Shown one piece after another: positions 1,132-31,100 of a DNA stretch of 64,000 nucleotides. Under the pieces are notes generated by a model, which was given only the letters and a program-made list of their open reading frames with translations, made no database searches and had not been told where the DNA came from. The stretch is from Octopus sinensis. Taxonomy: Eukaryota. The stretch lies in NCBI RefSeq assembly GCF_006345805.1, contig NC_043021.1, positions 11,842,001 through 11,906,000 on the forward strand, read 5' to 3'. Position 1 is the first letter of the stretch; each line of letters starts with the position of its first letter. The position numbers and the translations under genes are program-made.

Positions 1132-1150
1132 ATGTCTGAAGAACCGACCG
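1132..1150 (+). CDS. ASL: ASL candidate exon 1 coding part (MSEEPT + 1 nt, phase 1)
   Basis: aaaaATGTCTGAAGAACCGACCG|gtaagt. Consensus donor in a CpG-richer region, in frame with both exon 2 and the exon-3 CAG acceptor. Confidence 0.7.
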
Positions 1151-4100
1151 GTAAGTGGTATCTACTTTTGTTATTGTTTGGTGTTTCTTCGTTGATTTTC
1201 ATAAACGAGACAGAACTACTTTCGGTTCTCTCCCACCCCTATGTCTTGCATCGACAAATTCCTATAAAATTTCAAGGTGCTCAATATTAACCGACGTCTG
1301 CTTCGGGTGGATCCCTCGGTATATCTTAAATAAAACCACTGCATACGTGCATATATATATATGTATATATATATATATAATACTTGCATGTGCGTGTGTA
1401 TAGTTAAGGTTATTTTATTAATTTATCAACGCACTGATATTCATAATTAATTCACAGACCGTCGAGGTGTGTTGGTGCTGGGCGTGTTACCTTATTTAAT
1501 TATTTTCGTAAGCACGAAAAGAAAGAAATCCATACACGTTAATATAGAACAGTTCTTAACCTTGGCACAAGGCCAAATGTCTGCGGTAAGCGTGTGTACA
1601 CGATTGAATTGACTTCAAGGCTTTAATTATTTTTATTTTATTTTATCGACCCCCAAAATGATAAAAGGCGAAGTAGATACCGGTCGAATTGGAACTCAGA
1701 ATTGCTACTGAATGATAATAATAATACTTTCTCTTTTTGGCATAAGGCCTGGAATTTGATGGGAAGGGGTTAGTCGATTATATTGACTTTATAGTGCAAC
1801 TGATACTTATTTTATCGACCCCGAAAGGAAGAAATGCAAAGTCAACCACGGCGGAATTTAACCTTAGAACGTGAAGACGGACGAAATGCCGCTAAGCATT
1901 TATATCGGCGTGCTTAGCAATTTTGCCAGCTCGCCGCCTTAATAATTAATGATTTCAAATTGTAGTACTGGGCCAGCAATTTCGGTGGAGGGTGCAAGTC
2001 GATTACATCGACTCAAGTACTCAACTGATACTTATTTTATCGGCTTCGAAAGGATGAGAGGCAAAGTCGACCACGGCGGAATTTAAACTCAGAATGTGAA
2101 GACGGACCAAATACCTATTTCTTTACTACCCACAAGGGGCTAAACACAGAGAGGACAAACGGATTAAGTCGATTATATCGACACCAGTACGTAACTGGTA
2201 CTTACTTAATCGGCCCCGAAAGGATGAAAGGCAAAGTCGACCTCGGCAGAATTTGAACTCAGAACGTAACGGCAGACGAAGTACCGCTAAGCATTCACCC
2301 GTTTCTGCCAGCTCGCCACCTTAATAATGATGATAATAACAATAATAATAATAATAATCCCCACTGCTACAGGCACAAGACCTGAAATATTGGGAGAGGG
2401 GAGTCGACCCCGAAATTATGAAAGGTTAAGTTGACATTGCTAGGATTCTAATTCAGAGTAAAGCAGTTTTTTTTTCTGATGCCCTGTCGATACCATTGAT
2501 CTCAGCACTTGGCTGGTGTTTTATGCTATTGACCCTGTAAGGATTAACGACAAAGTTAACCTCGGTTGGGATTACCGCTAAGCACTTTGTCCGCAGAACG
2601 ATCGCACCAAAGTACCAACCCTTTTCTAAACGAAGACAAAATACTTTAAAGTTGGTTGCTTAATCGATCGCAGGTATTTCACTGGGGTTTGTTAAATCAA
2701 CACCAGTATTTGACTGGTACTTTATTTTATCGATTTTGGAAGGGTGAATGACAAAATTGACCACGGCGCGATTTGAACTTTGAATATAAAGAACCTAGAA
2801 ATACTCCTAAGCGGTTTTCCGACTCTAAACGATTTTGCGAATGCATTACCCTAAGTAATAGTCGTTTCTAATTTATAAACACTGCTAGTAATTTTTAAGG
2901 GGCTGGCGCTAATCAATTAATTAATTCGATCTCAGTTCATGGCTGGTACTGTATTTAGCGGAGTTTTGCAATAGCTTTCGGAGAACGAAAAACGTAAGGA
3001 ATTGTGTGGATTTTCGTTCTTTCCATAATATTTTTTTTAGTATTTCTGTATTTCATACAACGGGAGTCACGATTCTGAAAGAATCTTTTTCTCTAAATAT
3101 TTCGATTTTTTTTCTCTCTTTTCTCTCTTCTCTCTTTGCTCCTCAATACCTATTTCTTTATTACCCACAAGGGGCTAAACACAGAGGGGACAAACAAGGA
3201 CAGACATAGGTATTAAGTCGATTACATCGACCCCAGTGCGTAACTGGTACTTAATTTATCGACCCCGAAAGGATGAAAGGCGGAATTTGAACTCACAACG
3301 TAACGCAGACGAAATACCTATTTCTTTATTACCCATGAGGGGCTAAACATAGAGGGGACAAACAAGGACAGACATAGGTATTAAGTCGATTACATCGACC
3401 CCAGTGCGGAACTGGTACTTAATTTATCGACCCCGAAAGGATGAAAGGCAAAGTCAACCTCGGCGGAATTTGAACTCACAACGTAACGACAGACGAAATA
3501 CCGCTAAGCATTTCGCCCGGCGTGCTAACGTTTCTGTCAGCTCGCCGCCTTTTAAGGGGCTGGCGCTAATCAATTAATTAATTCGATCAGTTCATGGCTG
3601 GTACTGTATTTAGCGGAGTTTTGCAATAGCTTTCGGAGAACGAAAAGCGTAAGAATTGTGTGGATTTTCGTTGCTCCTCAATACCGCACTGTTTTCCTTC
3701 CACATGAGGTAGTGATAGCTATTCCAAAAACTCCGTAGAATTTGAATTCAAAACGTAATTGTCTGAATAAATATTGCATGAGATTTTCGTCTGATGATCC
3801 AACTTCAACCAGGGCCCAAGTCGTTGGGGGGATAATTCAAAGACGAAATATAAAGGAAAGCTGGCAATTTTTCGTCTCTAGTAGACCTTTCCGTCGATTT
3901 CCGTAAAAATTTTTTTTTTTTTTACATATGGGCTTGCGGGAACTTTTGAAGTAATGAGAGCGAAAGAGACTAAGAGAAAGCGATTGTATGACGAGGGAAG
4001 TTCTTTTGAAGTTACCGTGCATGGGAGCATTGATGGACATGTGTGTGTGTGTGTGTTTGATGGGGTGTGGGAGACAGACAGTATGTTGTGTAAGTGAAGT

Positions 4101-28100: not shown

Positions 28101-31100
28101 GATAGAAGGCTTGCTCTTCATTCCGTAGAAGATAAAATTCAAATCGGACCATGTTAACACCAAAAATTATTTACATCAAAAAGGTGTTTATTTTCTATGA
28201 AAACCCCTATTCTTTACGTTTTTTTTACTGCAGTGTCGCCATTTTTCGGTGTATTTCAACCAGAAAAATGTTCACTTAAAGAGAACAACAAGCTATATAA
28301 TGCAAAATTTTTACTTTTCAATGATTGAAACTATCTCAAAACTTTGTTAACGCGACATCAAAGTGTGCCGTTTTAAGCGCAACTTAAAAACAAATTCGCG
28401 CATCGCCGGGCTATACTGCTAGTTAAATGATAAACAAGCTTTTTTTGACTAAGGAATTCTCCTGCCATCATCGTTTCAGTGTCCACTTTTCTTTGCATGT
28501 ATAAGACAGACGGAATTTGTCGAGGCAAACTTTATACAGCTTGATGCCATTCGTGTTGCCAACCCTTACCTATTTCCAATCAAGTGATATTTCCACAAGG
28601 CATGACATGTTTTTTACGGATCATTGGAAATAAATGATATAACTTGCTTAGTGTCGTTTGTTTATAAACATCACACTATGTCAAGACAAAGGAACACAAA
28701 AGTATGTATTAAGTTGAAGTGAGATAACACACACACACATATATATATCTATATATTTTGCCATTCTAAGATTTTTGTGTCTGTATTTCAGGCTGGAAAA
28801 CTCTGGGGTGGTAGATTTTCTGGGAAAATTGATCCTATCATGGAAAAGTTCAATGCCTCTATTAGTTATGATAAACGAATGTGGGAAGAGGACCTTCAGG
28901 TAAGTTACTTAATTTTTTACTTTTAATCTTCGCCTTTCTTGTCTCCTCCCTCGCACTTTCTCTTGTCTCCTCCCTCCTCCTTCTCCTGTCTCCTCCCTCA
29001 CACCTTCTCTTGTCTCCTCCCTCGCACCTTCTCTTGTCTCCTCCCTTGCACCTTCTCCTGTCTCCTCCCTTGTACTTTCTCCTGTCTCCTCCCTCTCACC
29101 TTCTTCTGTCTCCTCCCTCCTCCCTCACACCTTCTTGTCTCCTCCTTCGCACCTTGTTGTCTCCTCCCTCGCACCTTCTGTCTCCTTCCTCGCACCTTCT
29201 CTTGTCTCCTCCCTTGCACCTTCTGTCTCCTCCCTCACCTTCTTTATGTTTCCTTCCCTTCTCTCTCTAAGATCCTATCTTTATTATAAATTAATGTATT
29301 TATTACTTGTTTCATGTAAATCAAATTGATGTATTGTGGTGGTCACCTATAAAGATGCAGTTATGCTTATTTCAGTAGTACAGAACAACCATTTAATATT
29401 GATTTCAAACTTTGGCATAAAGCCAGCAATTTGACCCCAGTTTCAACTGGTCCTTATTTTAACAACCCTAAAAGGATAAGTCGACCGTAGCAGACCTTGA
29501 ACTCAGAATGTAAAGACAGATGAAATGCTGCTAAGGATTTCAACCAGTGTGGTAACACTTCTACCAGCTCACTGCCTTCAATGACCATTTAATATCAAAT
29601 GATATTTAGGGCCAAAGTGGGGTGAGCTGGCAGAATTGTTAGCATGCCGGACGAAATGCTTAGCGACATTCTGTCCATCTTTATGCTCTCAGTTCATCAA
29701 GGTCAGCTTCGCCTTCTTTCATCCTTTTGGGGTCGATAAAATAAGTACCACTTGAGCACTGGGGTCACTGTAATTGACTGACGTCAACCACTGAACTTAT
29801 TGTGCCAAAATTTAAAAACAGTATTAACCCTTTCGTTACCAACCCGGCCAAAACCGGCTCTGACACTGTAGTACAAATGTCTTGTTTTCATAAGTTTTTC
29901 ATTAAAATCTTCCACCAAACCTTAGTTGCAATTTATGTTCTTAACACTAGCTTAATGATAATTGAATTATTTTACTAAATTCTTTGTTATATTTAAAATA
30001 ATTGAAAGAATCACAGAGCATCTCAAAATAAATACAGTAACGAAAGGGTTAAATTCTATTTTGGGCTTAAGCAAAATTAATTTAAATGTGGAATGGCTTT
30101 GGAACGAAAATTGAAATCTTCAAATGGTTCCATGAAGATTTCATCTAAGAATCTAAAAATGCAAGTGTGAATCAGATTCTGAAGTTTAAATTTTTCTTAC
30201 ATATGACTAACCTTTCTGTTGGCAGGGCAGTGTGGCTTATGCGAAGGCCATCCAGAAAATTGGACTGCTTTCTGAAAAAGAATGCGATCTCATCGTTGAG
30301 GGACTTCACAAGGTTAGTAAACTGCATAGTCACTCTCTACCTAATTTGAGGAGTCTTTTGGGGGTTTTTTCTAATCTCTGATCATCATCATCATTGTTCG
30401 ACCGTGGTCGAGACAATGGAATTTACTATGTTACGCCAGACTTCACGGTCCATCATAGCATTACGGAGGTCCTGTTGCTGGATGCCTGTATCCCTGGAGA
30501 TTACATCAGGGTAGGAGAGTGTGCGCCCTCTGGTATTGCGAGTAGATGGCTTCCAGAGGAGAAGAGTAGAAATTACTTCTTTTTCAGCTCTACAACAATG
30601 TCCAGCAAACTGGACTCTCCTACCTTTCACAAGAGATGGCACAGGTGGTAATTTCCCATATATTTGCATTTTGGTTGGATGGCGCTTCCACGAGAGATTT
30701 TGAGCTCTCATAAGGAGGCGAGTGTAGGTTCCATCCAACCGCCTCTCAAGCTTCTTTGATAACGTCCAGGTTTCTGAGCCATATAGTAGAATTGGTTCGA
30801 CTGTGGCTTTGAATATTTCAAGTTTGAAGTCTCTACTTAGATTTGATGACCAGATCTTATGCATGTCATTACTATCTCTGATAGCTTAGTCAGAGGAAGA
30901 ACAGTAGTGCTTATAACTCCTTTTGGGGCCCTCTGAAACTGGTGGTAGAAAGAGTGGTAGTTATCTCCTCAAACTAGAGACCTGACTTGAAAGCATGCAC
31001 CAAAAGGACCAGGTGGGGGTTGTGAAACTGGACAATAGATGCAGTCTGCCACCCCAAAACAGGATCGGTTCCTTTGGTGGGCTTCTACATAGTTTCCTCT

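Follow-up and report, generated by a model that had tools for sequence, protein, structure and literature searches.

A cassette-type exon in octopus argininosuccinate lyase may encode a nuclear localization signal

Introduction

Argininosuccinate lyase (ASL) catalyzes the final reaction of arginine biosynthesis. In mammals, the enzyme has been found in nuclei, where it supplies fumarate together with ASS1 (PMC11272581). ASS1 enters the nucleus via importin-7 after DNA damage (PMC11272581; PMC12864887). Of the 21 nuclear metabolic enzymes listed in a 2026 review, just 5 are given a defined nuclear localization signal (NLS); ASL is not one of them, and Table 1 of the review lists no NLS for mammalian ASL (PMC12864887). 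The classical monopartite NLS is described by the consensus K-K/R-X-K/R (PMC10807245; also PMC11269297). Here we analyze an ASL gene contained in 64,000 nucleotides of Octopus sinensis DNA (RefSeq assembly GCF_006345805.1, contig NC_043021.1, positions 11,842,001 to 11,906,000, forward strand), hereafter called the window. In contrast to mammalian ASL, for which no NLS is listed in that table, the third exon of the octopus gene encodes a motif resembling a classical NLS, and a nuclear location is predicted from it. We give a probability of about one-half to the reading that exon 3 is an old cephalopod cassette whose inclusion, the usual outcome in octopus, probably equips ASL with an NLS. Our search of titles and abstract openings, with subscription journals mostly outside its coverage, returned no publication on cephalopod ASL or its N terminus. 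As far as this search shows, the conserved NLS-like cassette is unreported, and the exon structure itself is already public.

Gene structure and transcript evidence

The ASL protein of the window is encoded by 18 exons between positions 1132 and 50632, and a single GT-AG solution reproduces the O. sinensis RefSeq protein P0003 (515 amino acids) letter for letter. Its exons are as follows.

1132-1150, plus strand: coding part of exon 1, 19 nt, encoding MSEEPT with Met1 (residues 1-6 of P0003), phase-1 donor CCG/GTAAGT.
17813-17835, plus strand: exon 2, an internal 23-nt microexon, phase 1 to 0, containing Met11 (MSEE).
21668-21796, plus strand: exon 3, 129 nt, phase 0-0, cassette-type, encoding an acidic, Pro/Ser/Thr-rich peptide predicted to be disordered.
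28792-28899, plus strand: exon 4, which opens the conserved ASL core (AGKLWGGRF).
30226-50632, plus strand: exons 5-18, intact, ending with the stop codon TAA.

An earlier interpretation, made from the DNA letters without database searches (the sequence-only reading), had identified the gene as ASL and proposed its first four exons. The gene is ASL and its exons are real; the annotated protein is reproduced exactly, and both Pfam domains exceed their cut-offs (Lyase_1, PF00206, 331 bits versus 27; ASL_C2, PF14698, 89.6 bits versus 27.3). On recheck of the window, all its coordinates and frame arithmetic were right as well. The ASL active-site motifs at residues 162, 210, and 333, which we take to be catalytic, are intact and common to all 67 aligned homologs. 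From residue 56 onward, the octopus core aligns with human ASL (1k62, starting at residue 3 of that chain; E 2e-197), and the whole catalytic core, including GSSLMPxKxN, is shared with animal ASLs such as the human enzyme and duck delta-2 crystallin (PF00206 plus PF14698). A genome search found no ASL with intact motifs other than the window gene, the one further match being a degenerate intronless paralog, and exon 4 is present only once, so that the locus is single copy for this exon.

The order exon 1, exon 2, exon 3 from position 21668, exon 4 is already the structure in the public annotation, which holds a single Octopus ASL protein with no isoform suffix. A query with octopus exon 3 retrieved the O. 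bimaculoides ASL, within a cluster of three Octopus members. The O. bimaculoides model (P0001, 505 amino acids) begins at the exon-2 methionine, Met11, and uses 21668; with the O. vulgaris model (P0002, 479 amino acids), this acceptor is used in the annotated proteins of all three Octopus species. None of the three cluster proteins shows an N terminus in which exon 1 is joined to position 21675 or exon 3 is skipped. P0002 lacks exon 4 (28792-28899, phase 0-0) and with it the WGGRF segment, and still carries the KRPR motif of exon 3; this skip is probably an annotation artefact, because exon 4 is included in all three informative transcript contigs described below.

We mapped contigs from four public runs (X4, X6, X7, and X12), taken by guess to be RNA, onto positions 17600-28930, a stretch that begins downstream of exon 1; the contigs skip GT..AG introns. 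The results cover the best 15 of 477 joints and the best 24 of 3970 loose ends. Such contigs drop rare forms, and they document the presence of a splice form, not its absence. The joints 17835 to 21668 and 21796 to 28792 occur together within single contigs in three of the four runs (X4, X7, and X12, from three studies and two organism codes), in agreement with two junctions on the list of the sequence-only reading. By length arithmetic, these three contigs would span the entire coding sequence and a further 45-248 nt of 3' untranslated region. Run X6 gave no joint and is uninformative, because exon 4 is almost uncovered there (depth 0.67 in the exon-4 bin). Exon 3 is thus included in 3/3 informative contigs, and the joint 17835 to 28792, which would skip it and was also on that list, is not among the joints listed for X4, X7, and X12. 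In these samples, the dominant route uses the 21668 acceptor and includes exon 3.

Upstream of exon 3, the three contigs have 25, 152, and 54 letters, respectively, and in each of them the genome match stops one letter before the exon-2 acceptor (side 24). Exon 2 is therefore joined to an upstream piece ending in G, as exon 1 does, which suggests that exon 1 is its partner. If the upstream letters of the X7 contig are unspliced exon 1, length arithmetic places the 5' end of exon 1 near position 1022.

Exon 3 has sequence properties of a cassette exon: its 129 nt are a multiple of 3, it is symmetric (phase 0-0), and its splice sites are weak. Its acceptor (TAG, score -1.8) is the weakest of 17, and its donor, after position 21796, is the second weakest of 17. 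Apart from a CAG seven nucleotides downstream (-0.7), all other acceptors of the gene score 0.8 to 13.6, with 11.3 for exon 2.

The exon-3 peptide

The exon-3 peptide contains the only match to K-K/R-X-K/R in the 515-residue octopus ASL.

21734-21745, plus strand: KRPR, residues 37-40, fitting the monopartite NLS consensus, with a conserved K-H pair 11 residues upstream.

Residues 1-65 have pLDDT values below 50, so that the motif lies in a context predicted to be disordered. We compared KRPR to the classical signals bound by importin-alpha. It fits their monopartite consensus, and the upstream basic residue lies 11-12 residues away, within the usual spacing of 10-12 residues (PMC10807245). 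The pair at residues 24-25, however, is K-H rather than two Lys/Arg residues (linker of 11 residues, 12 in Argonauta), and its second residue, His, does not fit a bipartite signal. The surroundings of KRPR, a putative monopartite motif, are acidic. Exons for importin-alpha are present in the octopus genome.

No Pfam family matches exon 3, and residues 1-62 gave no usable feature match in the ESM Atlas (TM < 0.5). A search for shorter N-terminal fragments yielded 2 matches among 12 candidates, neither of them informative.

Comparison with other ASL proteins

In Argonauta hians, we find MSDE...MSEE at the same spacing and an exon-3 homolog with the blocks GKHPS.E and EAKRPRNSE, 36/59 residues being identical. 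The two-methionine N terminus and its extra exon, from which the sequence-only reading deduced a lineage-specific isoform system, are thus no novelty at the species level. These blocks could instead form another short linear motif, for kinase docking, partner binding, or stability control, with no role in import. Two blocks are kept while the spacer between them varies, and S/T-P sites follow in both octopods, which speaks for such a motif. This alternative appears quite improbable to us: the basic tetrapeptide is the sole part shared with the sister-clade insert (see below), and the tail has neither a Pfam family nor an Atlas feature match.

In a quick, midpoint-rooted tree of 55 proteins, eight ASLs from three lineages group together as sister to the octopods (SH-aLRT 99). 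They are most likely transcript-derived sequences from squid-like cephalopods. In the first lineage, long forms (7 contigs) have a 25-residue insert that includes PKRPR, and a short form known from 1 contig has the same core, with 0/442 core differences between P0005 and P0127. In the second, 1 contig has a 17-residue insert with KNKQAR and 2 contigs give a short form, with one core difference in 442 between P0130 and P0006. Pairs of long and short forms with 0-1 core differences therefore occur in two of three sister lineages at the level of protein sequence. The inserts lie at the same place as exon 3, after the start peptide and ahead of the WGGRF segment, and they are related to each other (11/5000 shuffles reach their score). 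We infer that the sister-clade insert and octopus exon 3 are the same exon. A cassette reading of exon 3, as in the sequence-only reading, is reasonable, since exon 3 has the weakest acceptor of the gene and an insert is present or absent at this very place in sister-clade transcripts; for octopus itself, inclusion is the one form among the joints listed.

KRPR is found in Octopus, in Argonauta, and in the sister-clade proteins P0005, P0124, and P0126; P0130 lacks it. Outside the cephalopods, the NLS consensus occurs in 1/115 ASL N-terminal extensions (1/18 of those with at least 15 residues), in counts that leave out proteins without WGGRF (5/122, among them P0002, which has KRPR). When the three peptides with the motif are shuffled, 2-8% of the shuffled sequences match the consensus. 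P0105, an animal-type ASL on a long branch outside the cephalopod clade, has an N-terminal PAAKKAK that also fits the consensus, possibly an independent gain.

ASL N termini are variable in general: among 117 of 122 homologs, 5-188 residues precede WGGRF. Their median is 9, as against 61 in octopus, where two additional coding segments are present, one made up of exon 1 and the beginning of exon 2, the other being exon 3; the octopods range from 51 to 65. Exon 3 could accordingly be a tolerated, functionless disordered extension in which KRPR is a chance basic patch, with ASL cytosolic regardless and the skipping in relatives being noise from weak splice sites. This free variation speaks for such a view, and so do annotated fish isoforms (P0068, P0071, and P0076) that likewise diverge at this junction, a degenerate motif in one sister lineage, and a further sister lineage in which the insert was not found. 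On the other side, both Octopus and Argonauta include exon 3 with its frame open and in phase, and the same four residues, KRPR, are found again in a sister lineage with only 74% identity in the core; the probability of KRPR in shuffles is 0.0006-0.002. We regard a functionless extension as possible but rather unlikely.

A possible role in nuclear import

Exon 3 may be read as an import-signal cassette because its motif fits the consensus, it lies in a disordered tail, long and short forms exist in relatives, and mammalian ASL is found in nuclei. The main octopus mRNA, running from exon 2 over the 21668 acceptor to exon 4, would yield an intact ASL with a predicted-disordered tail of approximately 55 residues. 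KRPR in this tail would bind importin-alpha as a likely NLS. ASL is a tetramer, and its four tails would thus add avidity for importin-alpha. Inclusion of exon 3 would direct ASL to the nucleus, and skipping would leave an ordinary cytosolic enzyme. This choice would be switchable in the sister clade, with skipping a minor event in octopus. Both the nuclear localization of the exon-3 form and its binding to importin-alpha are predicted from the peptide sequence. The proposed outcome in octopus is a nuclear ASL pool, as in the nuclear fumarate production by ASS1 and ASL in mammals (PMC11272581; PMC12864887).

Several observations weigh against this interpretation. Given its acidic neighbors and the K-H pair upstream, KRPR would be a weak or atypical signal. 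Its recurrence counts for two lineages, and it was singled out post hoc. From the third sister lineage only short forms were recovered (35 contigs), and the KNKQAR insert of the second does not fit the NLS consensus. Homology of the inserts is unproven, because little is shared beyond KRPR: octopus exon 3 resembles the PKRPR insert mainly through this tetrapeptide, 118/5000 shuffles reaching the score of their comparison, and 500/5000 for the Argonauta peptide. The run of nine residues that Octopus and Argonauta have in common does not reach significance in view of their overall identity (p 0.18). Finally, no exon-3-skipped octopus form is found among the joints listed or in the three cluster proteins.

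A more far-reaching version of the import hypothesis is that cephalopods evolved a splice-switchable NLS exon, which octopods include by default, so that the only catalytically intact ASL found in the octopus genome would be substantially nuclear and make arginine and fumarate there. We consider this version unlikely. If it were true, the lineage would have hard-wired a localization that mammals reach conditionally, and a pair of ASL forms differing only by the NLS exon would offer a direct test of nuclear arginine and fumarate production.

The tandem acceptor of exon 3

Exon 3 has two candidate acceptors, TAG with an exon start at 21668 and CAG with an exon start at 21675, 7 nt apart; we refer to the resulting exons as E3L and E3S, respectively. 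A third AG (exon start 21680), in frame with 21668, had been overlooked in the sequence-only reading.

21672-21674, plus strand: CAG, the candidate second acceptor (exon would start at 21675), located across Ala-Val codons, score -0.7.

Open and in frame are the routes 1-2-3L-4, 1-3S-4, and 1-2-4, and, from the exon-2 ATG, 2-3L-4 and 2-4. Out of frame are 1-4, 1-3L-4, and 1-2-3S-4, the last of which stops after 31 codons. According to TassDB2 (PMC2878309), acceptors in tandem at distances of 2-12 nt are frequent, and the octopus pair likewise forms a frame-shifting tandem. It differs from those cataloged there in that the second site is known from sequence only, with no sign of coupling to the upstream exon.

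Such coupling, exon 1 being spliced to 21675 and exon 2 to 21668, had been proposed to generate several in-frame N termini, or nonsense-mediated decay of mismatched routes. The frames fit this idea and the two AGs score alike, similar strength often accompanying use of both sites (PMC2878309). In Argonauta, Val17 is kept after a Pro, so that the CAG could exist there, as far as its protein tells. Against it, only 21668 is used among the joints listed (three of four runs), and the contigs of X4, X7, and X12 run on through 21675 with no break at 21674-21675 among the rows listed; by assembly logic as we infer it, a well-used second entry would cause such a break. An N terminus of the 1-3S type occurs in no annotated protein, and only about two residues would distinguish this product from the Met11 form. 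Nearby AGs are also common, 8 of the 17 exons having one within 15 nt downstream of the acceptor (2/17 at an offset of 1 mod 3). We find coupled acceptor choice very improbable, and the CAG is presumably incidental. Minor use of 21675 may occur, since the CAG scores as weakly as the TAG that is used.

The two start codons

Positions 1132 and 17824 are the only two places in the window with the 12-mer ATGTCTGAAGAA. As a free match it is improbable (0.003 expected in 27.6 kb); given two M-S-E-E peptides, the chance of identical codons is p ~0.07. Two MS[DE][DE] peptides in a row are notable, because only 1/116 short ASL N termini starts in this way. The sequence-only reading had attributed them to a duplicated start exon. 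Past the 12-mer, flank similarity is absent except for a (TTA)n microsatellite: the upstream and donor flanks of exons 1 and 2 align no better than chance, and the acceptor sides of exons 2 and 3, which come first or second among 136 pairs, do so via the (TTA)n tract, with a shared 5-mer as in 6/136 pairs. A small, old duplication behind the two MSEE peptides is possible. In a simpler history, exon 2 would be the old four-codon start, resembling the 4-5-residue starts of the sister clade, and a leader exon would have acquired an in-frame ATG before the split of Octopus and Argonauta. Exon 2, whose Met11 is kept in Argonauta, is likely the older start-codon exon; in human ASL, we assume an intron after codon 4. 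Met1 and Met11 would be two in-frame starts 10 residues apart.

300-4500, no strand assigned: CpG-retaining region, likely the single promoter, at exon 1, this role being deduced from composition.
1577-1585, plus strand: hypothetical end of a candidate second upstream exon, ATG-TCT-GCG/GTAAGC, phase 0, within an old repeat copy.

In 600-nt windows over 300-4500, the observed/expected CpG ratio is mostly 1.0-1.4, with a median of 0.48 for the whole window. It reaches 1.5 at exon 1 and is 0.43 at exon 2, which argues against a promoter there. Exon 2 had also been counted as a separate start exon, a view not supported here in light of this low ratio and of the genome match that ends, in 3/3 contigs, one letter before the exon-2 acceptor (side 24).

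In the X4 contig, precisely two letters precede exon 2, which puts E3L at contig position 26. The donor after 1585 has the second-best score in 900-5000 and shares exactly its two final exon letters (CG) with exon 1. The contig start fits a break in the assembly graph, presumably built from 31-mers, since two upstream exons would share only their final two letters; a variant in exon 1 could be another cause. The ATG at 1577 has a weak context and is in frame when spliced directly to exon 3 or exon 4 and out of frame via exon 2. For these reasons, translation of a transcript using the 1585 donor would begin at Met11, as it does in the O. bimaculoides model. A second upstream exon would explain the retention of Met11, as this one contig end hints.

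Other features of the genome and the window

The intronless ASL paralog lies at positions 4057-5703, minus strand, of locus L009 (approximately 19226556-19228202 of contig C11 in genome G000). It encodes 549 amino acids with 47% identity and is annotated as ASL-like in three Octopus species. All three active-site motifs are lost in the 4/4 members checked, as against 67/67 intact ASLs: GYTH is changed to GYTV, TGRSRNDQ is altered, and the signature loop is replaced. With a strongly hydrophobic N-terminal segment at residues 11-29, the paralog is likely, by its sequence, a conserved secreted or membrane-anchored pseudoenzyme; it is possibly a retrocopy. A broken Lyase_1-family match with several stops, which is not among the ASL protein matches, lies on a small contig (G000, C8460, 94162-95148, minus strand). 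In the window itself, intron 5 contains an open frame at 30394-30885 (minus strand) that we take to resemble the tail of a LINE reverse transcriptase. At 62342-63496, also on the minus strand, a 385-residue open frame carries repeated motifs that read as C2H2 zinc-finger-like.

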